Part shown: one piece after another, positions 11,749 to 21,600 of the stretch
How the letters are laid out: every line of letters begins with the position of its first letter
Position numbering within the stretch: the stretch's first letter is position 1
NCBI GenBank assembly: GCA_040776945.1
Contig: JAXGZN010000002.1
Location: forward strand, 608,001-672,000
Direction: 5' to 3'
DNA: 64,000 bases
DNA from: Methanomassiliicoccaceae archaeon
GTDB taxonomy: Archaea > Thermoplasmatota > Thermoplasmata > Methanomassiliicoccales > Methanomassiliicoccaceae
The notes under the pieces: model-generated
What the model saw: the letters and a program-made list of their open reading frames with translations, nothing else
Told to the model about the DNA's origin: nothing
Databases searched by the model: none
Position numbers and translations under genes: made by a program

Positions 11749-12666
11749 ATGGAGAGCCCGACATCTATCAAGAGATACAAGCTGACGATACCTCACGAGG
11801 AATACATCTACCCTGGCCACAGCACCTGTCCGGGCTGCGGCGAGCCGCTGGCGCTGCGCTACCTCCTGAAGGCGCTGGGGCCCAACACGGTCCTCAACGT
11901 CCCCGCGGGATGCGGCGCGGTCATGCCCGGAGTGTGGCCTCGCTACGCGATCAAGGTCCCTTTCGTGGACCATGCCTTCGAGTGCACCGCGGCAGTGTCC
12001 TCCGGCATCAAGGCCGCTCTGGAGAAAAAGGGAAGGGACGACATCACCGTGGTAGGCTGGGCCGGAGACGGCGGCACCGTGGACATCGGGCTCCAAGCAC
12101 TGTCCGGCGCGGTGGACCGTAACACCGACATCCTGTACGTGATGTACGACAACGAGGCGTACATGAACACCGGGATACAGTGCTCCGGCTCCACCCCCTG
12201 CGGGGCGTGGACCACCACAACCCCGGGAGGAAGGAACGTGAAGCAGCGTCAGGGGAAGAAGAGGATCCTCGAGATGATGATCGCCAACGGCATAGTGTTC
12301 GGAGCGACCGTTTCCGTGGCCTACCCCGATGACTTCATCAGAACAATCCGCAAGGCCAAGGACATCAAGGGCCCCAGGTTCATCCATGCATACACGCCAT
12401 GTCCCTCGGGATGGAGGATGGACCCCCGGAAGGCGATCGAGGTCTCGAGGCTGGCGGTCCGCACAGGGGCCTTCCCCCTATACGAATATCACAACGGGAA
12501 GTACAAGTTCACCAAAGAGATTAAGAAGAGGAAGCCGGTTGAAGAATATCTTCGCCTCCAGGGGAGGTTCAGGCACCTGACCCCCGCTGACGTGGCCGAG
12601 GTCCAGGCCCTTGTCGATCGCGAGTACAAGGAGCTGGTGGCCAAGGTGGGGGCGGGCGGACGGTGA
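11749..12666 (+). CDS. porB: 2-oxoacid:ferredoxin oxidoreductase beta (TPP-binding) subunit
   Basis: CPGCG, GDGGT..IG...YDNEAYMNTG and PCPSGW. Confidence 0.93.
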   Translation: MESPTSIKRYKLTIPHEEYIYPGHSTCPGCGEPLALRYLLKALGPNTVLNVPAGCGAVMPGVWPRYAIKVPFVDHAFECTAAVSSGIKAALEKKGRDDITVVGWAGDGGTVDIGLQALSGAVDRNTDILYVMYDNEAYMNTGIQCSGSTPCGAWTTTTPGGRNVKQRQGKKRILEMMIANGIVFGATVSVAYPDDFIRTIRKAKDIKGPRFIHAYTPCPSGWRMDPRKAIEVSRLAVRTGAFPLYEYHNGKYKFTKEIKKRKPVEEYLRLQGRFRHLTPADVAEVQALVDREYKELVAKVGAGGR

Positions 12667-12670
12667 CCGG

Positions 12671-14485
12671 TTGGACAAGCTGCTGGAGAATAGCGGGAGG
12701 CTCCTCCTGCTGGGTAACGAGGCTATAGCTAGAGGTCTGATTGAGGCAGGGGTCGGGGTCGCTACCACCTACCCGGGCACGCCCTCCTCGGAGGTGGGGG
12801 GCATACTCGAGAACATCGCCGCGGATGCTGGGATGTACTTCGAGTACTCAATTAACGAGAAGGTAGCTCTCGAGGTCGCCGGGGCCGCCGCAGCTTCCGG
12901 GGTGCGTTCCTTCGCGTTCATGAAGCACGTTGGACTCAACGTCGCCAGCGACGCGTTCATGACCCTCTCCTATACCGGCGTCAGGGCCGGCATGGTCATA
13001 ATGTCCGCCGACGACCCCTCCTGCCACTCCTCACAGAACGAGCAGGACAACCGCTTCTACGCCAAGCTCGGACTTTACCCCATGATGGAGCCGTCCACGC
13101 CGGCGGAGGCGAGGGATATGCTGGTGGAGGCTTTCCGCATCTCCGAGACCCTGGGCGCGCCGGTGCTGTTCCGCACCACCACCCGAGTGAACCACGCGCG
13201 AGGCGCGGTGGAGCTCCGCCCCGCGCCGAACCCTGTCCGCAGGTCCAATTTCGAGAAGGACCCCCAGAGGTTCGTTACCGTTCCCGCCAACGCCCGCCTC
13301 GGCCGGCTGGAGCAGCTTAAAAGGATGGACAAGGCGCTGAAGCTCTCTGAGGCCTCGAAGCTGAACTTCGTGGTCGGCAACTCCCGCGTGGGGGTCATCA
13401 CCAGCGGGGTCACCTATACATATGCCAGAGAGTGGCTGGATGACGTGGAGATCCTAAAGCTCGGGTTCACCAACCCGGTGCCGGAGGATATGGTCCGCCG
13501 CTTCCTCAAGGGCAAGCAGCGCGTGGTGGTATTGGAGGAGCTGGAGCCGTACCTCGAGGACGAGGTGCGGCGGATCGCCCAGCAGGCCGGGATCGATATC
13601 GAGATACTGGGCAAACGCACCGGGCACCTTCCCCGGGCGTTCGAGTACTCGCCTGACCTCATCCTTTCGCTCGGCTCCGTACTAAAGGTCAGGCCGGAGA
13701 GGACGCCCCTGCCTTCGGTGCCCTTGAAGCTGCCTCCCCGTCCGCCGGTGCTGTGCGCAGGCTGCCCCCACCGCTCTACCTATTACGCGGTGAAGAAGGC
13801 GGTGGGCAAGGATGGCGCGATCTACTCGACCGACATTGGGTGCTACACCTTGGGCGTCCAGCCGCCGATGCAGTGTGCCGACTTCGTGCTGTGCATGGGC
13901 TCCTCCGTCGGCGCCGCGGGAGGCTTCGTAGAAGCGACCGACCAGAAGGTCGTGGCGTTCATCGGCGATTCGACGTTCTTCCATGCCGGCATTCCGGGGC
14001 TGATCAACGCGGTTTACAACCGGCACAACTACACGCTTGTCATCCTCGACAACCGCACCACGGCCATGACCGGCCACCAGCCCAATCCGGGCGTGGGGCG
14101 CGATTATTGCGGCATCGAGACCATAGGTCTGCCGATCGAGCCTCTGGTCCGAGCGTGCGGCGTCGAGCACGTGCGGACGGTCGACCCGTACGACCTGAAG
14201 GCGACAATCGAGGTGATGAAGGAAGCCGTCGAATACAGCGGGCTCTCGGTGGTCATCTCCGAGCATCCCTGCCCTCTCGCGGTCAGGAAGGAAGGCAAGC
14301 TCGCCCCGGTGAAGTACGCTATAGACCAGGAGAAGTGCATCAGGTGCTACACCTGCGTCTCCAAGTACTCCTGCCCGGCCCTCAGCAAGGAGGGCGGCAT
14401 GGTGAGCATAGACCTCTCGCTGTGCATCGGATGCGGGTGCTGCGCGCAGGTATGCCCCAAGCAGGCCATCGAGGTGGTCCAGTGA
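12671..14485 (+). CDS. iorA: indolepyruvate:ferredoxin oxidoreductase alpha subunit
   Basis: LGNEAIARG, YPGTPSSE, KHVGLNVA, SSQNEQD, LCAGCPH, IGDSTFFH and a C-terminal ferredoxin; TTG start inferred. Confidence 0.94.
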   Translation: MDKLLENSGRLLLLGNEAIARGLIEAGVGVATTYPGTPSSEVGGILENIAADAGMYFEYSINEKVALEVAGAAAASGVRSFAFMKHVGLNVASDAFMTLSYTGVRAGMVIMSADDPSCHSSQNEQDNRFYAKLGLYPMMEPSTPAEARDMLVEAFRISETLGAPVLFRTTTRVNHARGAVELRPAPNPVRRSNFEKDPQRFVTVPANARLGRLEQLKRMDKALKLSEASKLNFVVGNSRVGVITSGVTYTYAREWLDDVEILKLGFTNPVPEDMVRRFLKGKQRVVVLEELEPYLEDEVRRIAQQAGIDIEILGKRTGHLPRAFEYSPDLILSLGSVLKVRPERTPLPSVPLKLPPRPPVLCAGCPHRSTYYAVKKAVGKDGAIYSTDIGCYTLGVQPPMQCADFVLCMGSSVGAAGGFVEATDQKVVAFIGDSTFFHAGIPGLINAVYNRHNYTLVILDNRTTAMTGHQPNPGVGRDYCGIETIGLPIEPLVRACGVEHVRTVDPYDLKATIEVMKEAVEYSGLSVVISEHPCPLAVRKEGKLAPVKYAIDQEKCIRCYTCVSKYSCPALSKEGGMVSIDLSLCIGCGCCAQVCPKQAIEVVQ

Positions 14486-15072
14486 AGTACAACATCCAGC
14501 TTGTGGGAGTGGGCGGGCAGGGAGTGCTCCTGGCATCCACCGTCCTTGGCAACGCGGCGGTGGCCGAGGGGCTCCAGGTCGCCATGTCCGAGGTCCATGG
14601 CATGGCCCAGAGAGGCGGCAGCGTGCTGTGCTCGGTGCGCATGGGCGATGAGATATTCAGTCCCCTCATACCCATGGGGTCCGCGGACATCCTGCTGGGC
14701 TTCGAACCGGTGGAGACCTGCCGCGCGCTCAACACCGCGAACAAGGACAGTCACATCATCACCAACATCACGCCGGTGGTCCCCATCAGCGTCTCGGCCG
14801 GCAAGGAGACCTATCCTCCGATCAACGAGCTTCTGGACGCCATCCGCTCGGTCAATGGGAACCTCATAGCGCTGGACGCCACCGCGCTGGCGGTGCAGGC
14901 CGGGAGGGCGATAGCCGCCAACTCTGTGCTCATCGGAGCCATCTCCGCGGTCAAGGGCTTCCCGCTGTCCCGCGAGCGCATGCTCGATTCGCTGCTGGCT
15001 ATCGTCCCGCCCAAGGCCAGGGACATCAACGTCCGGGCGTTCGAGCTGGGGTATGAGAAGGCCAGGTCCTAG
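14482..15072 (+). CDS. iorB: indolepyruvate:ferredoxin oxidoreductase beta subunit
   Basis: GVGGQG and EVHGMAQRGGSV; GTGA overlap with the iorA stop. Confidence 0.94.
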   Translation: MKYNIQLVGVGGQGVLLASTVLGNAAVAEGLQVAMSEVHGMAQRGGSVLCSVRMGDEIFSPLIPMGSADILLGFEPVETCRALNTANKDSHIITNITPVVPISVSAGKETYPPINELLDAIRSVNGNLIALDATALAVQAGRAIAANSVLIGAISAVKGFPLSRERMLDSLLAIVPPKARDINVRAFELGYEKARS

Positions 15073-15109: not shown

Positions 15110-15670
15110 ATGACCGCCATCATGAGATGGTGCGCTCCCCTGGCGGCGACGATGCTGGCACTATCGATCGTTGCCTGCGTCCCGCCCGCGGCGGCCTTCG
15201 ACGAGATGAGCGGGATAACCATGACCATGTCGCCGCAGGAGGCCACCAGCGGGGCCCGCCTGGACCTCGTGGTGACGCTGAGCAATCAGAACGACCGGGA
15301 CCTCACCATCACCTCGCTGACGGCGCAGATCTACAACGGCGGGATGTTCTCTCCGGAGGCTAAGTACGAGATGTACCACATAAATCCCTCCGAGGGCCTC
15401 GTGCCGGCTAACGGTACAAGGTCGTTCGAGCTCGGCGGGAACGCTCCTAAGTACGTGGGCATGTGCTCGGTGGCGGTGACCATCGCCGGCGTGTTCGAGG
15501 GCGATGAGAACGCCTCCATCGACATCCTACTCTCGTCCATCACGCTTAATCCCGATATCTGGGGCTTCATGCTGACGGGTGCGCTGCTGTTCATCATCCC
15601 GCTGGTGATCGCGGTCGCCGCCATAGCCGTCGTGATATGGCACAACGGCAAGAGCAGGGGCGGCCGGTAA
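15110..15670 (+). CDS. secreted protein with C-terminal membrane anchor
   Basis: Signal peptide (AAA-F), beta-rich middle region, C-terminal TM helix with basic tail; TATA-like box at 15085-15095. Confidence 0.8.
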   Translation: MTAIMRWCAPLAATMLALSIVACVPPAAAFDEMSGITMTMSPQEATSGARLDLVVTLSNQNDRDLTITSLTAQIYNGGMFSPEAKYEMYHINPSEGLVPANGTRSFELGGNAPKYVGMCSVAVTIAGVFEGDENASIDILLSSITLNPDIWGFMLTGALLFIIPLVIAVAAIAVVIWHNGKSRGGR

Positions 15671-15744: not shown

Positions 15745-16845
15745 CTAGGCTACCGGCGCCACCTGTTGCAGCGCGTAGCCGATGATAACTCGGATGTAGC
15801 CTCGAAGCCGCTCGTCCAGCTCAGGGTCCCCGGTATCCACCCGGAGGACCCTGGTCTCCCTCAGCTTATTGGGGGTGGCCATTACCACGATGCTCCGGAT
15901 GCCGGCCATCTCGATGACCCGGTGCGATATCTGCTGGTTCCCACGGCCGAAGATGAAGCCCTGGGCCCCGATGGGCGAGACCACGATCTTGGCCTTGGAG
16001 TATTGTGGCAACGCTCTTAAGATGGCGTCCTCGTCAACGTCCTTGGCCAGGAGCCTGCGGTCCGCCACCAGGTCCACCCCCAGCAGCGTCTTGCTGATGC
16101 CCAGCCTATCGGCGAGGGCCTTGATGGTGGTGCCCGGTCCAAGAATGTAAAGGACGCCGTTCTCCATGTTGTCGATGAAGTGCTTTGCCATCGCCTCCTT
16201 GTGCTGGTCCTCGGTGGCACCTCCGAGAGCGAGCTTGTACGGCTGCATCAGGGCCGGCTCGCTCGGCGTCAGCATATAGCCATATAGTGAACCGCTCAGC
16301 CTTCCTCGCCGCATCTCCTCTTCGTCCACGTCCATGACCTCAGAGGGGTGGGCCGGGAGGTTCTCAACTCGCGTTCTCCTGAGGAGGGCCCCCGCGTCCT
16401 GGGGCGTGTTGGCGAAGACGCCGGACTGCATCTTCACGCCCGACGGTATGCCGATGACCGGGGCCGCCTCACCGATCACGTCCATTATGTCGCGCGCCGT
16501 GCCATCGCCCCCGGTGAACATCAGAACATCCACGCCGGCCTTCAGGATGGCCGTGCATGCCTCCCTGGTATCCTTCTCCCCGGTTGGATCTCCCGGTGTG
16601 TACACGACCGTCACCCTTGGAGTATGACGCCGGAGGACATCCTCGCCCATCGTGCCTCCGGCGGTGAAGAATTCGTAGCCTTCGAGGTCCCCGGCGGCGC
16701 GAAGCGCCTCCTCGGTCCTGCGCTGGGCGATGGGGCGGGCTCCCCTCCTCATAGCCTCTTCCAGTATCTCCGCCGTATCTGTTCCCTTGAGCCCGGCCGC
16801 CCCTCCCATCCCGGCTATAGGGTTGATGATAAGTCCAACGCGCAC
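15745..16845 (-). CDS. ATP-NAD kinase family protein (COG3199/AcoX-like)
   Basis: INPIAGMGG..GLKGTD, GGDGTARD, IPSGVKMQS and GRGNQQ. Confidence 0.88.
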   Translation of the reverse strand: MRVGLIINPIAGMGGAAGLKGTDTAEILEEAMRRGARPIAQRRTEEALRAAGDLEGYEFFTAGGTMGEDVLRRHTPRVTVVYTPGDPTGEKDTREACTAILKAGVDVLMFTGGDGTARDIMDVIGEAAPVIGIPSGVKMQSGVFANTPQDAGALLRRTRVENLPAHPSEVMDVDEEEMRRGRLSGSLYGYMLTPSEPALMQPYKLALGGATEDQHKEAMAKHFIDNMENGVLYILGPGTTIKALADRLGISKTLLGVDLVADRRLLAKDVDEDAILRALPQYSKAKIVVSPIGAQGFIFGRGNQQISHRVIEMAGIRSIVVMATPNKLRETRVLRVDTGDPELDERLRGYIRVIIGYALQQVAPVA

Positions 16846-16934
16846 GCAACAACATTATTGGAAGGACGATAAAAAAGATAGGAAAAACGAGAGGGACGGG
16901 GAGGCCGGGGGGACGTACCTCCTCGCGTCCCTGC

Positions 16935-17738
16935 TCATCTTGATAGAAGTTCAGGACCCACTGTGGTGGTGAAGGTCATGTCCACGGCCTTCGGGTCGAC
17001 GCTGGCGGTCACCATCCCCGCTACCGGCGCGGCCGCGGGCCGGGCGACTATGGCGATGTCGGGCATCTCCCTGTAGTACGCCTCGACCTCCTCACGTATA
17101 GGCGAGATGAGCTCTTGAGTGATCCTCTGGGTCATGGAATCGATCATGCTTCCGATCGACCTCTCCATGATGGCGAAGCTCTCGTTGACCGGGATGTCCC
17201 CGGCCAGGTCCAGCAGCCGATCGTTCTCCAGAACGATCGTGTTCTCGGCGACCCCGCGGAGCTTCTTGATCCCCTCCTTGGCGGCGGCCTGCCTTCCCCT
17301 CTCGTACGAGAACGGGTTGATGGCGATGGCGAAGGTGACCGCGTTGAGCCCCTTGGCGACGTCGGCCACAATGGGCGCCGCACCGGTCCCGGTGCCGCCC
17401 CCCATCCCTGCGATGACGATGACTATGTCACTGCCCTTAAGAACGCTCTCGAGGGCCGATCTGGCCTGATGCGCGCAATGTTCCCCGACCTCCGGGAATC
17501 CCCTGGCTCCCTGGCCATGGGTCACGTCCTTACCGATAAGTATCTTCTTACTGGCGTTGATCCGCTCTAACTTGGTCTCATCGGTGTTGACGGCAACAGT
17601 TTCCACCTTCTTGTTGCTCCAGTAGATGCTGTTGACCACGTTGTTCCCGGCTCCGCCGCATCCCACGACGGATATCTTCGGTTCTAGGAGGCCCTTGCTT
17701 AGAGTGGCCACTAATTGATCGCTCTTGCTGTGCATCAT
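16935..17738 (-). CDS. ftsZ: FtsZ-family GTPase, C-terminally truncated (no T7 loop or activation domain)
   Basis: VVGCGGAGNN, AVNTD, GMGGGTGTG, PFSYER and LENDRLL are present; the expected NxDxxD is absent. GAGGGAG RBS before ATG 17738. Confidence 0.85.
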   Translation of the reverse strand: MMHSKSDQLVATLSKGLLEPKISVVGCGGAGNNVVNSIYWSNKKVETVAVNTDETKLERINASKKILIGKDVTHGQGARGFPEVGEHCAHQARSALESVLKGSDIVIVIAGMGGGTGTGAAPIVADVAKGLNAVTFAIAINPFSYERGRQAAAKEGIKKLRGVAENTIVLENDRLLDLAGDIPVNESFAIMERSIGSMIDSMTQRITQELISPIREEVEAYYREMPDIAIVARPAAAPVAGMVTASVDPKAVDMTFTTTVGPELLSR

Positions 17739-17848
17739 CCCCGCTCCCTCTCCGTCCCCAACCAAAGGTGGGCTGGAGGGCCCCATTGCTGGGGCCCCGT
17801 GCATCCCATCCCTCTGCAGACCACATCCCTTGGATCTGATAAGCTCTT

Positions 17849-18232
17849 TCAGTCAGGTATCACCTGTACCGTGCTCTTGAGGGCCTCCATTTTCTGCTTC
17901 TTCGTTGCCTCAAGGAATTCCTCGGTGTCGATGAACTTCTTCCTGATGCACTCCACCACCGCTTCCTCGGGGGAATTGTATATCCCTGCCCGGACCGAGG
18001 TCATGATGGTCTCATGCGCGAACCGGGGGACCTCGATAGTCATCACGTTGCTCTTCTTGCCGAGCTTCGTGGCTTCGGTTGCCCTGTCCCCCTCGAACTG
18101 CTCGATGAACGAACGAATGGCCACCCTGGCGAAGTTGGAGCGGTTCGAGTACTCAGGATGCTTCTTGATGAAACCATCAAGAAGGATCAGGTCCTCGGGT
18201 TCCAACCGCAGTGAGATCCTTTCTCCGTCCAC
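17849..18232 (-). CDS. tandem ribbon-helix-helix (CopG/CdrS-like) regulator
   Basis: ERISLRL...YSNRSNFARVAIRSF and a second unit VMTIEVP...GIYNSPEEAVVECIR; GAGGTGA RBS before GTG. Confidence 0.82.
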   Translation of the reverse strand: MDGERISLRLEPEDLILLDGFIKKHPEYSNRSNFARVAIRSFIEQFEGDRATEATKLGKKSNVMTIEVPRFAHETIMTSVRAGIYNSPEEAVVECIRKKFIDTEEFLEATKKQKMEALKSTVQVIPD

Positions 18233-18299
18233 GTTAGCTCACCTCTGTATTAGAGACGATTGGGAAATGTCCTATTTAGTATATAAAAATATGTCACTC

Positions 18300-18420
18300 G
18301 TCATATATTGTCATACTCAATTTTGATATTTTGATCCTGATCTACCCAGTCATCGATTTGAGAATTTATAATAATTTTTGGTAAAAGCCACAGTTCTATT
18401 CAATATGACAATGTACGACG
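18300..18420. promoter_or_regulatory. inverted pair of TGAC-containing sites upstream of the RHH-ftsZ promoter
   Basis: gtcatatattgtcata (18300-18315) and tatgacaatgtacgac (18404-18419) match 14/16 as an inverted repeat; minus-strand TTTTTATATA box at about 18280-18289. Confidence 0.55.
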
Positions 18421-18720
18421 GGGTCGATAATGGCCTTGCAATGCGAGCCGGCGGAAGATCGGCGCGATCGTGAGCGCCGCGGGCGGACCCAGCGCATCTC
18501 TCCATGCCCGGACCTTCCCGGCCATAAAATTGGGGCCTTACCGGACACGGCCTCAGAGATCATGAACGACCTCGGCGTTCATAGAGTCGCTCGCCGCACG
18601 AAGGGCGTCGCACTCGGAACCCAGGCAACCGCTCCCCATCCAGCCATGCCAACCAAGATGCGGTCGGATATGCATCCTATTTATAACAATAGCGTATTCC
18701 TGGCCACAATAGGTGTAGCG

Positions 18721-21600
18721 ATGTCAAGCTGGACCGCGGGGATCGAAGCCAAATGGCAGGCGCGCTGGTTAGATGCCAGGCTTTTCGAGGCGAATAGGGA
18801 CTCGAGGCCCAAGTTCATGGTGATCTTCGCCTATCCCGGCTTGACCGGATATCTTCACGTAGGGCACATGCGCGGGTACACCTACGTCGATGCTATCGCC
18901 CGCTACAAGCGGATGGCGGGGTTCAACGTCCTATTCCCAGTGGGGACGCACGCCACCGGCAACGGGGCCATATCCCTCGCGAAGAGGATAAGGGAGAAGG
19001 ACGGAAGGACCATCGATTATCTCCTGGCCAACGGCTGCCCGGAAGAGATGCTGCCGAGGTTGGTGGAGCCCCAGCAGGTGGTCGATTTCTTCAACCAGGT
19101 CTATGTGAACCAATACTGGAAGCGCTTCGGCTTCCTTGCGGACTGGCGCCGCTTCACCTCAACGACGAATCCGGACTACAGCAGGTTCATCCAGTGGCAG
19201 TTCCGAAAGCTGAACGATGCCGGCCTGCTTATCCAGAAGCCTTATTTCGCCCCGGCCTGCGTGGAATGCGGGCCGGTGGCGGTGGACGCCTCGGAGACGG
19301 ACCTCTCAAAGGGAGGCAACGCCGAGACCACCGAGTACACGCTCCTCAAGTTCCGCTGCGGGGACCTATTTCTTGTTGCTGCGACCCTGAGGCCGGAGAC
19401 GGTGTACGGGCAGACCAACTTTTGGGTGAACCCCGATGTGGAATATGTAAAGGTCAGGAGGAACGGCGAGATATGGGTCATAAGCCGTCCTTCGTATGAC
19501 AAGATGCGCTATCAGAAGGACGGTCTCGAGATCATGGGGACCGTGCCCGGGACTGAGCTTATAGGCCTGACGGCCATGGCGCCGGTCATACACCGCCCCG
19601 TGCCGGTGCTGCCGGCCATCTTCGCCAAACCCGAGGTAGGGACCGGCCTGGTGACCAGCGTGCCGTCGGACGCCCCTGACGACTGGGTGGCCCTCAAGCT
19701 GCTCCAAGAGGACGACGAGGTCCTGAAGAGGTACGGTCTGGACGCTGACCTCGTGCGATCGATAAGGCCGATCCCCATCATTGACACAAAGGGCTATGGT
19801 CCCCTGCCGGCGGTGGAGATGGTCGAGAGGATGGGCATCACCAGGTCCGGAGACCCGCGTCTGGACGAGGCCAAGAAGGCCATCTACAAGGACGGGTTCC
19901 ATACCGGGAGGATGAACGCCGCATGCGGCGAGTTCGCGGGCATGAAGGTCGAGGAGGCCAAGGAACTCATCAAACAGATGATGATAAGGAGCGGCGAGGC
20001 CGAGGTGTTCTATGACCTGTCGGAGGAGGTGGTGTGCCGTTGCGGCAGGCCCGTGGTGATCAAGAAGGTGGACGACCAATGGTTCATCGACTATGCCAAC
20101 CCCGGACTGACGGAGAACAGCAAGCGGCACGCTAAAAGCATGAGGATCCTGCCTCAAGAGTACTACGTGAACGTGCAGGGCGTTCTCGACTGGTTCCGTG
20201 AGCGTGCTTGCGTGAGGCAGGGCAACTGGCTCGGGACGCGGTTCCCCCTCGATCCCAAGTGGATCATAGAGGCGATCTCCGATTCCACGCTGTACCCGCT
20301 ATACTACATCATCGCACCGTACTTCAATTCCGGCCAGTTGGAACTCGGATCTCTGAACGAGACGTTCTTCGACCACGTATGCCTGGGCATGGGAAATGTC
20401 GAAGAGGTCTCCGCGGCCACCGGCGTGGCCGTCGATCTCCTTGAGCGGATAAAGGAGGATGTGTTCTACTGGTATCCTCTGGACATCAATCTCGGGGGCA
20501 AGGAGCACATGACCGTCCACTTCCCGGCGTTCCTTATGAACCATGTGGCCATCCTCCCCGAGGAGCTTTGGCCGAGAGGAATCTTCGTCAACTGGTACAT
20601 CACCGGCAAGCTGGGCAAGATATCCAAGTCCAAAGGAGGGGCGGAGCCCATACCTGACGCCGCTGAGCGGTTCGGGGTCGACGCTCTGCGCCTTTACTAC
20701 GCGCACATAGCCGCACCGTTCGCTGACGTGGAATGGGACGAAGGGGCCATAGACAACTACTCCTCGAGGATCGATCGCATAATCAGGACCCTCGATGAGC
20801 TGAAGTCCCTGAACGGCACCGAGGTCCAGAACGCGGACCGGTGGGTCCTCTCGCGCCTTTCCAATAGGGCCCGCACCATCCGATCGGCGATGGACGAGTT
20901 CGACCTACGCCGGATGGCCAACGAGGTCTTTTTCGAGACCCTCGCGGACATGAGATGGTACATGCGGAGAGGAGGCGACAACAGCGAGACCGTAGCGAAG
21001 GCGGTCAGGAGCTGGGTGCGCATGATGGCGCCGGTTACGCCCCATATCGCCGAAGAGCTCTGGGAGGGCCTCGGGGAGAAGGGCTTCGTGTCGATAGCTC
21101 CGTTCCCCGAAGAGGAGGAGCTTCCGTCCGACCCGTTGACGGAAGCTTCCGAGTACTACCTCCAGGAGGTGATGGCCGATATCAACGAGATCCTCAAGGT
21201 CACCGGCATCGTTCCCAAGAGGATCATAATCTACACCGCCCCTCAGTGGAAGTCGGACATCTTAAGGCTCGGACTGGACCTCGCCGGGTCCAAGCAGCTG
21301 AGCGTTCCCGGGCTGACGAAGGCCGTAATGTCCCGAGACGACCTCAAGCGGAGGGGAAAGGACTCCGCCGACTTCGCCCGGAAGACCGCCGAGGACCTCA
21401 TGAAGCGTTCCGAGCCGGAGCTGAGGCAGCTTGGAACGGAGATCGACGAGCTCACGTACCTCAAGGACGCTTCCAAGTTCCTGTCCAAGGAGCTGGACTG
21501 CGAGATGGCCATCTATCGCGCCGATGACGGGCAGGCCCCCGACCCTCAGAAGAAGGCCCGGGCCGCGCAGCCTCACCGGCCGGCCATCTATGTAGAGTAA
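18721..21600 (+). CDS. leuS: leucine--tRNA ligase (archaeal type)
   Basis: IEAKWQ, HVGH, DWRR.F.T, ATLRPET, SVPSDAPDD and KISKS; C-terminal P.RPAIYVE. Confidence 0.96.
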   Translation: MSSWTAGIEAKWQARWLDARLFEANRDSRPKFMVIFAYPGLTGYLHVGHMRGYTYVDAIARYKRMAGFNVLFPVGTHATGNGAISLAKRIREKDGRTIDYLLANGCPEEMLPRLVEPQQVVDFFNQVYVNQYWKRFGFLADWRRFTSTTNPDYSRFIQWQFRKLNDAGLLIQKPYFAPACVECGPVAVDASETDLSKGGNAETTEYTLLKFRCGDLFLVAATLRPETVYGQTNFWVNPDVEYVKVRRNGEIWVISRPSYDKMRYQKDGLEIMGTVPGTELIGLTAMAPVIHRPVPVLPAIFAKPEVGTGLVTSVPSDAPDDWVALKLLQEDDEVLKRYGLDADLVRSIRPIPIIDTKGYGPLPAVEMVERMGITRSGDPRLDEAKKAIYKDGFHTGRMNAACGEFAGMKVEEAKELIKQMMIRSGEAEVFYDLSEEVVCRCGRPVVIKKVDDQWFIDYANPGLTENSKRHAKSMRILPQEYYVNVQGVLDWFRERACVRQGNWLGTRFPLDPKWIIEAISDSTLYPLYYIIAPYFNSGQLELGSLNETFFDHVCLGMGNVEEVSAATGVAVDLLERIKEDVFYWYPLDINLGGKEHMTVHFPAFLMNHVAILPEELWPRGIFVNWYITGKLGKISKSKGGAEPIPDAAERFGVDALRLYYAHIAAPFADVEWDEGAIDNYSSRIDRIIRTLDELKSLNGTEVQNADRWVLSRLSNRARTIRSAMDEFDLRRMANEVFFETLADMRWYMRRGGDNSETVAKAVRSWVRMMAPVTPHIAEELWEGLGEKGFVSIAPFPEEEELPSDPLTEASEYYLQEVMADINEILKVTGIVPKRIIIYTAPQWKSDILRLGLDLAGSKQLSVPGLTKAVMSRDDLKRRGKDSADFARKTAEDLMKRSEPELRQLGTEIDELTYLKDASKFLSKELDCEMAIYRADDGQAPDPQKKARAAQPHRPAIYVE

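Follow-up and report, generated by a model that had tools for sequence, protein, structure and literature searches.

We analyzed a 64,000-nucleotide stretch of the Methanomassiliicoccaceae archaeon assembly GCA_040776945.1 (contig JAXGZN010000002.1, positions 608,001 to 672,000; hereafter the window), in which a minus-strand gene at 16935..17738 encodes a 267-residue protein of the FtsZ family, designated short FtsZ (sFtsZ). The protein combines the nucleotide-binding half of FtsZ with a conserved C-terminal peptide and has neither the T7 loop nor the C-terminal domain. It is a real, conserved, and expressed gene and represents a new FtsZ variant rather than a new kind of system. The enclosing open reading frame (16935..17804, minus strand) yields 289 aa when counted from its first ATG and 267 aa from the ATG at position 17738; the latter is the likely start because the orthologs begin at the same MM(H/Q)TKSEQ. 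The gene was divided into the following parts, using the predicted local distance difference test score (pLDDT) of a structural model and the ratio of nonsynonymous to synonymous substitution rates (dN/dS) among 10 sequences of the genus (Nei-Gojobori method, NG86; dS ~1).

16935..17738, minus strand: sFtsZ coding sequence, 267 aa plus stop (orthologs with the same start and length)
17199..17687, minus strand: FtsZ/tubulin GTP-binding domain, residues 18-180, elements T1-T6 (PF00091, model, dN/dS, invariant pocket)
17070..17189, minus strand: helix H7 with a helical extension of ~20 residues, residues 184-223 (one helix in the model; dN/dS 0.19)
16962..17063, minus strand: variable Pro/Ala-rich linker, probably disordered, residues 226-259 (pLDDT <50; dN/dS 0.50; length and sequence vary)
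16938..16961, minus strand: conserved C-terminal peptide VGPELLSR, residues 260-267 (recurrent family end motifs; dN/dS 0.22)

Domain searches of sFtsZ against Pfam returned PF00091 alone (residues 21-179, E-value 1.2e-37), with no match to FtsZ_C (PF12327). The NCBIfam ftsZ model TIGR00065 scored 205.6 bits, which is under its equivalog cut-off of 295.2, and aligned to sFtsZ over profile positions 15-210 of 353. The intact GTP-binding motifs reported in a preliminary description of this locus were all located, namely GGAGNN at residues 28-33, NTD at 51-53, GGGTGTG at 113-119, and PFSYE at 142-146, followed by the H7 stretch ESFAIMERSIGSMIDSMTQRIT. Across 37 members of the sFtsZ family these motifs are invariant or near-invariant, and the residues of the GTP pocket and of T3 are invariant. 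Neither the sequence nor the alignment contained a T7 motif, whether as N.D[FY].D or as an acidic NxDxxD; sFtsZ departs from the alignment of full-length FtsZ proteins exactly at the start of the PGL-x-NLDF-x-D T7 loop, after H7.

The AlphaFold2 model, built from the 37-member family alignment, had pLDDT values above 90 over approximately residues 20-170 and displayed a single long helix of ~40 residues (184-223), the extension of which was predicted with only moderate confidence (pLDDT 65-81). Residues 228-267 were unstructured (pLDDT <50), and no FtsZ_C domain was present in the model. Foldseek comparison of the model with FtsZ structures aligned 178-210 columns, corresponding to the N-domain and H7 only, with root-mean-square deviations of 1.1-2.2 A to most FtsZ N-domains and 35-41% identity in the GTP domain. 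The best match among solved structures was the M. jannaschii FtsZ (E-value 5e-40; query residues 19-209 on chain residues 37-229). CetZ structures matched far more weakly (E-values 2e-9 and 2e-8), and thus sFtsZ is not closer to CetZ. Pfam, alignment, AlphaFold2, and Foldseek therefore agree with the earlier observation that the T7 loop and the C-terminal domain are missing. The Pro/Ala-rich tail was likewise recovered, with ARPAAAPVAG in the sequence and low pLDDT over residues 228-267, and the model shows no divergent activation domain in that region. Codon usage is host-like, as previously described: the G+C content at third codon positions is 0.80 in sFtsZ and 0.80-0.85 in the neighboring genes.

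The short form is widespread. Among the best 120 database relatives of sFtsZ, the median length was 267 aa, 118 proteins were no longer than 300 aa, and FtsZ_C was found in one. This protein, P0074 (377 aa, 58% identity), was considered as a full-length relative and set aside; its first ~120 residues are of the short family and the rest resemble bacterial FtsZ, the joint falls at GGGTGTG, and the gene occupies a single 2.1-kb contig, suggesting that it is probably a chimeric assembly. Within the order Methanomassiliicoccales, 120 of 121 sampled genomes had a match at an E-value of 1e-20 or better, and in families f1-f6 the best match was nearly always a short open frame. All 43 loci assigned to the family (L033-L073, L077, and L078) encode proteins of 246-332 aa in which the T7 motif is absent, two of them with a broken tail frame, and the next-best 19 loci examined were all full length with T7. 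A profile search of 151 genomes of the class Thermoplasmata detected short open frames (matching from approximately residue 3-7 to beyond residue 228) in at least nine further families; this sample includes one unpublished genome (G235), on which no result rests. No full-length ortholog was found at the locus in close relatives. The short form is thus a class-wide conserved gene and not a strain-specific deletion. It is also under purifying selection: dN/dS is 0.15 overall and 0.09 in the GTP domain, compared with 0.19 over H7 and its extension (residues 181-225), 0.50 in the linker, and 0.22 in the last eight residues, the latter value resting on few sites. The conservation and dN/dS checks that the preliminary description had proposed thus both pointed to a conserved truncation.

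The gene lies in a conserved neighborhood, with the following features around it.

17849..18232, minus strand: ribbon-helix-helix (RHH) protein, 127 aa, CdrS-like, the upstream partner of sFtsZ (Pfam RHH_8, E-value 8e-4)
17739..17848, strand not applicable: spacer of 110 nt between the RHH and sFtsZ genes (from coordinates; 16-127 nt in 41 related loci)
16871..16936, minus strand: stem-loop with U5 and U6 tracts behind it, likely transcription terminator (-28.6 kcal/mol, z -3.6)
16951..18245, minus strand: stretch covered by RNA contigs that spans the RHH and sFtsZ genes (four metatranscriptome runs)
12611-15072, plus strand: IorA/IorB-like genes (indolepyruvate ferredoxin oxidoreductase), named from reading the translation; synteny anchor across the order
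18430-21600, plus strand: leucyl-tRNA synthetase (LeuRS)-like gene, named from reading the translation; synteny anchor across the order

The gene order IorA-IorB-(membrane protein)-(NAD kinase)-sFtsZ-RHH facing LeuRS is retained in the genus. An RHH gene of 120-150 aa is located directly upstream of sFtsZ, on the same strand, in all 41 sFtsZ loci for which upstream DNA is available. Downstream, the stem-loop begins one base past the sFtsZ stop codon and is followed by UUUUU and UUUUUU; none of 200 shuffled sequences folded as well. The terminator-like hairpin and T-tract noted earlier were thus seen by direct folding, and a consensus scan for terminators and promoters, the criteria of which are bacterial, called no terminator at sFtsZ. 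The next gene downstream, NAD-kinase-like, starts 89 nt past sFtsZ, and the six FtsZ_C matches of the genome (five strong and one weak) all lie away from the sFtsZ locus, which leaves no place for the frameshifted remainder that the preliminary description had also found not to fit.

RNA-library contigs spanning the pair were present in four metatranscriptomes, each from a different study (sludge, digester, and bioreactor); they extended from 16951 or 16955 to 18237 or 18245. Runs X1, X3, and X6 gave single contigs of 1283-1317 nt, and in run X2 the stretch was covered by two that overlap; in X1, adapter read-through at position 18245 shows that a fragment ended there, 13 nt ahead of the RHH gene. 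In the four runs there was no contig cover at 16428-16882 or 18248-18400, and cover at 16155-16427 was absent or near zero, which is not evidence of silence. RNA contigs of this kind cannot prove a single transcript, and DNA carry-over is possible; the contig boundaries shared by four studies nevertheless give a reasonable indication that the two genes are expressed as a unit. The missing domain and the two loci with a broken tail frame could be taken to mean that sFtsZ is a decaying remnant or an assembly artefact. Given the class-wide conservation of length and motifs, the low dN/dS, the fixed synteny, and the RNA from four studies, we regard the probability of such an explanation as negligible.

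The tail of sFtsZ carries its own conserved end. The last seven residues recur throughout the family, the Methanomassiliicoccaceae-type ends being (N/S/T/P)P(E/Q)(L/F)L(S/T)R or TL(I/M)(M/V)R. The sFtsZ proteins of Methanomethylophilaceae end in I-x-x-L-(I/M)-S-A, those of other Thermoplasmata in FGP(S/N)MFG, and the FtsZ2-like proteins of Thermoplasmata end similarly, in ISLVR, IPLVQ, or VPLVT. The succession of conserved domain, variable linker, and conserved end corresponds to the usual layout of FtsZ tails. Because the linker and the conserved end are retained, the globular C-domain appears to have been lost by internal deletion rather than by simple truncation. Archaeal FtsZ tails are described as centering on a GID motif that is bound by SepF (PMC8178401); the end peptide of sFtsZ appears to resemble this motif, although it differs from the GID consensus.

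The RHH partner points to the possible origin of the gene. The window RHH protein apparently holds two RHH-like repeats. A profile built from the RHH orthologs upstream of sFtsZ also found RHH genes directly upstream of FtsZ2-like full-length FtsZ genes in Thermoplasmata, including the paralog in the same genome (C1:660.9-661.9k). Further matches of this profile were 59-83-aa, CdrS-sized open reading frames that precede FtsZ2-like genes in Methanosarcinales and their relatives and, in Methanomethylophilaceae, genes that precede a divergent FtsZ-like gene. CdrS (NF058555) was the best NCBIfam match for all three RHH proteins tested, with E-values of 4e-18 for the RHH protein beside the FtsZ2-like paralog and 2e-17 for the Methanosarcinales frame. 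In haloarchaea, cdrS and ftsZ2 form an operon, and CdrS is reported to regulate ftsZ2 and other division genes (PMC7439475). On the basis of these sequence comparisons we conclude that the RHH-sFtsZ pair is probably a diverged copy of a cdrS-ftsZ2-type operon. The sFtsZ family of Thermoplasmata would have arisen from such a copy by internal deletion of the C-domain and the T7 loop, retaining the GTP pocket, the nucleotide-side ("top") polymerization surface including T3, the H7 helix, the flexible linker, and the C-terminal peptide.

Two results speak against this derivation. The window RHH protein itself matches CdrS weakly (E-value 0.0024; 17.8 bits against a cut-off of 100). Moreover, in the phylogeny against FtsZ1, FtsZ2, and CetZ that the preliminary description had suggested (quick trees, with support from the Shimodaira-Hasegawa-like approximate likelihood ratio test, SH-aLRT), CetZ formed a separate long branch and the CetZ-rooted trees placed sFtsZ outside FtsZ1 and FtsZ2, the separating branch having an SH-aLRT support of 99. 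Long branches may be the cause of this placement, and the approximately unbiased (AU) test did not reject a single clade of sFtsZ and FtsZ2-like proteins (log-likelihood difference 5.5, p 0.08).

The genome that carries the window (2.17 Mb, two contigs) holds seven tubulin-family matches, comprising five full-length FtsZs, sFtsZ, and one weak divergent protein; its relatives in the order have 3-9 matches per genome at an E-value of 1e-20. The situation differs in the family Methanomethylophilaceae (f7), several cluster members of which carry the names Candidatus Methanomethylophilaceae or Ca. Methanoplasma. At an E-value of 1e-20, sFtsZ was found in 39 of the 40 sampled genomes of this family and was the sole match in 37, and these copies are positional orthologs because they lie between the same IorB and LeuRS genes. 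FtsZ_C scored above the Pfam cut-off in none of the 40 genomes (three weak matches), compared with 80 of 80 genomes in the other six families, and four complete single-contig Methanomethylophilaceae genomes had no FtsZ_C match even at an E-value of 0.1. The best 120 relatives of a Methanomethylophilaceae sFtsZ were all 157-281 aa long with PF00091 only, and their NCBI name is "cell division protein FtsZ". Methanomethylophilaceae thus have no strong FtsZ homolog besides sFtsZ, and in some genera no other homolog of any strength was found.

Many Methanomethylophilaceae genera carry, in addition, a 270-295-aa protein that is barely recognized by Pfam (L025-L028, L169-L188). Its model (pLDDT 90) has the complete two-domain FtsZ fold, with template modeling (TM) scores of 0.75-0.85 to FtsZ structures. 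The protein ends without a linker or tail, and its gene is preceded by an RHH homolog in all four loci checked (L025-L028). We read it as a fast-evolving FtsZ2 ortholog. It is a possible partner of sFtsZ, and the features of the two complement each other, one protein supplying the tail and the other both domains. The two could even form the FtsZ machinery of this family as an obligate heterodimer or co-polymer of a tailed sFtsZ and a tail-less, T7-degenerate FtsZ2-like protein, loosely like alpha/beta-tubulin, in which case the genera with sFtsZ only would divide without an FtsZ filament or by an assembly unlike that of known tubulin-family proteins; we consider this combined scheme rather improbable. 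A Pfam search for Snf7/ESCRT-III returned nothing in the window's own genome and in four Methanomethylophilaceae genomes, and is uninformative because the control in Sulfolobus was weak.

The predominance of sFtsZ in Methanomethylophilaceae could also mean that it self-assembles through a new interface, such as the extended H7 of ~40 residues, and is itself the division scaffold there, in line with its being the sole tubulin-family match in some genomes. A protein predicted to assemble by a novel mechanism has been proposed before in FtsZl1 (PMC2875224). Every known longitudinal contact of FtsZ and tubulin, however, needs the C-domain/T7 face, the helix extension is modeled with the moderate confidence given above, and in one genus the GTP motifs are decaying (at L024 sFtsZ has GGETGTD and T3 is lost). 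We therefore find self-assembly distinctly unlikely.

Another explanation would take sFtsZ off filaments altogether, as a GTP-dependent switch that acts with the apparently co-transcribed RHH protein to tune transcription of division genes. The RHH gene is the only constant partner of sFtsZ, in Methanomethylophilaceae as elsewhere, the two genes are kept even in genomes in which the search revealed no further member of the tubulin family, and the reported control of haloarchaeal ftsZ2 and other division genes by CdrS (PMC7439475) is in keeping with such a role. The conserved T3 and tail peptide fit FtsZ-type contacts more easily than a switch of this kind. Furthermore, the pairing of a regulator with its target in one operon requires no protein contact, and we know of no contact between an RHH protein and FtsZ. 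Overall, a transcriptional switch appears unlikely, if still worth consideration.

FtsZ filaments are described as treadmilling, with growth where the C-domain/T7 face is exposed (PMC11157280, PMC11938149, PMC9897490), and in the growth step the GTP-bound N-domain of the incoming subunit docks on the C-domain/T7 end (PMC11157280, PMC11938149). Known FtsZ inhibitors are reported to cap this same end (PMC11938149, PMC9897490). Tentatively, and with somewhat less than even confidence, we prefer the reading that sFtsZ is a GTP-bound, tail-tethered protein that terminates or anchors filaments of two-domain FtsZs by docking on their T7 face. In such a mechanism, sFtsZ would bind GTP and attach, through its nucleotide face, to the T7/C-domain face that a two-domain FtsZ presents at its growing end. 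No further subunit could then add because sFtsZ has no C-domain face, and the protein would end the filament or form a terminal heterodimer. In Methanomassiliicoccus, paralogs of the FtsZ1 or FtsZ2 type would be the candidate partners; in most Methanomethylophilaceae, the candidate would be the highly divergent two-domain FtsZ2-like protein. The tail peptide would tie the filament end to a receptor of FtsZ tails, for which SepF, present in the genome of the window, is the first candidate, and the apparently co-transcribed CdrS-like RHH protein probably would set the level of sFtsZ. The preliminary description had proposed a non-polymerizing or end-capping modulator of the canonical FtsZ filament. 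Capping indeed fits the N-domain-only architecture, but the restriction to canonical FtsZ does not hold, because the gene outlives canonical FtsZ in Methanomethylophilaceae; sFtsZ is thus not only a modulator of canonical FtsZ.

Several results from Methanomethylophilaceae weigh against the docking mechanism. In five genomes of four genera (G042, G017, G136, G128, and G126; 94-99% complete), a six-frame search of the genome found sFtsZ as the only tubulin-family match, leaving no visible filament partner. The divergent two-domain protein of the family has no recognizable acidic T7 motif. The Pfam model of SepF matched 18 of 40 Methanomethylophilaceae genomes, compared with 77 of 80 in the other six families. 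In two large genera of the family (g12 and g25) SepF was found in 1 of 11 genomes each, with weak matches only in the others.

The tail peptide also allows a narrower function, in which sFtsZ would be a decoy that competes for the tail receptor (SepF or another anchor) and limits membrane attachment without capping. The conserved terminal peptide behind a flexible linker, the wide occurrence of SepF outside Methanomethylophilaceae, and the reported binding of archaeal SepF to the FtsZ C-terminal peptide (PMC8178401) are in keeping with such a role. It leaves the strong purifying selection over the whole GTP domain unexplained, however; the motif is unlike the archaeal GID consensus, and the peptide persists in genera g12 and g25 despite the scarcity of SepF there. 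We regard the decoy as very unlikely. A predicted complex of the SepF core (residues 40-127) with the sFtsZ tail (226-267) scored 0.00 in a run without controls and weighs neither for nor against tail binding.

Comparison with known systems places the capping mechanism proposed for sFtsZ in context. Like the cdrS-ftsZ2 operon (Darnell et al., 2020, PMC7439475), the sFtsZ locus has an RHH gene directly upstream, apparently co-transcribed, and a product with a linker and a terminal peptide. Unlike FtsZ2, sFtsZ is missing the C-domain and T7, and its RHH partner is longer than CdrS (127 aa, apparently with two RHH-like repeats, compared with ~60 aa). Engineered N-terminal fragments and bottom-face mutants of FtsZ have reportedly been used as filament cappers in E. 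coli by Du and co-workers (PNAS, 2018). Such constructs resemble sFtsZ in offering only the nucleotide face, and a protein of this kind would be expected to join the growing end and stop further addition there; they are laboratory products, whereas sFtsZ is a natural conserved gene with a tail peptide and a regulator, for which capping is a proposal. MciZ, SulA, MinC, and MipZ cap or sequester the C-domain end of FtsZ (PMC11938149, PMC9897490), and sFtsZ would target the same face and likewise shorten filaments; these proteins are unrelated to the FtsZ fold, whereas sFtsZ is an FtsZ domain that would use the natural subunit interface. FtsZl1 (Makarova and Koonin, 2010, PMC2875224) shares with sFtsZ a GTPase domain of the tubulin superfamily that is not followed by the canonical FtsZ C-domain. 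According to that description, FtsZl1 is without T6-H7 and has a coiled coil and an alpha-helical C-domain, whereas in sFtsZ the T6-H7 region is present and aligned to FtsZ, close to true FtsZ. ARC3 and FtsZm are likewise natural derivatives of FtsZ in which the ends are altered, and they modulate canonical FtsZ or occur beside it. Plant ARC3 is fused to other domains, and the magnetotactic FtsZm has both globular domains and is missing only the tail; the FtsZm pattern, in which the tail was lost and the domains were kept, is the opposite of that in sFtsZ.

Full-text searches of the literature gave no description of an FtsZ without the C-domain in these archaea, although the supplements of PMC7439475 (Table S1 and Fig. 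S1, on cdrS-ftsZ2 loci) may list the pair as cdrS-ftsZ2. The main text of the CetZ/tubulin-superfamily survey of Brown and Duggin (PMC9856176) is silent on Methanomassiliicoccales and on truncation; its Table S1 gives six homologs for M. luminyensis B10, three FtsZ1 and three FtsZ2, with no non-canonical member, and sFtsZ was probably counted there as an ordinary FtsZ. Annotation pipelines and surveys of FtsZ based on PF00091 hits will overestimate the number of functional FtsZ proteins in these lineages.

According to the current view, FtsZ cannot polymerize without both of its globular domains, since each GTPase site is completed by the T7 loop of the adjoining subunit. The sFtsZ protein is a natural and widely conserved FtsZ that consists of the nucleotide-binding half and a tail peptide only; for Thermoplasmata, it represents a third FtsZ type beside FtsZ1 and FtsZ2. 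It may serve as a ready-made tool and natural test for filament polarity and end-capping in archaea. The cells of Methanomethylophilaceae, a family that includes gut methanogens, look wall-less; no canonical FtsZ was found in this family, and its mode of division becomes a testable problem.

Further observations concern other FtsZ genes and the neighborhood of sFtsZ. Outside the window, at C1:659.9-667.0k (L029), two tandem FtsZ copies immediately precede the L11-L1-L10-L12 ribosomal protein genes, a neighborhood of the FtsZ1 type, and the FtsZ2-like copy with its own CdrS-like RHH gene is about 3 kb from them. Elsewhere in the class, five nearly complete genomes of two genera (g60 and g67) of family f24 had no match to the sFtsZ profile at an E-value of 1e-30 and, because of this, are without FtsZ of any kind at that level; Table S1 of PMC9856176 lists 0 homologs for Picrophilus. 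Also outside the window, at C2:137.2-138.3k (L007, L032), a divergent FtsZ-like protein of ~317 aa was found with a degenerate GLGGETGSH and a weak FtsZ_C match (E-value 0.002-0.007); it has no acidic T7 motif and no RHH neighbor. As a partner of sFtsZ it was set aside, having no RHH neighbor and not being an ortholog of the two-domain protein of Methanomethylophilaceae. A relative of this protein occurs in another Thermoplasmata genome (L138). Near sFtsZ, the plus-strand open reading frame at 15110-15670 encodes a 186-aa protein of no Pfam family, with a hydrophobic N-terminus and a membrane-like stretch toward the C-terminus, and its C-terminal part is conserved beside the NAD-kinase-like gene in 5 of 8 loci compared within the genus.

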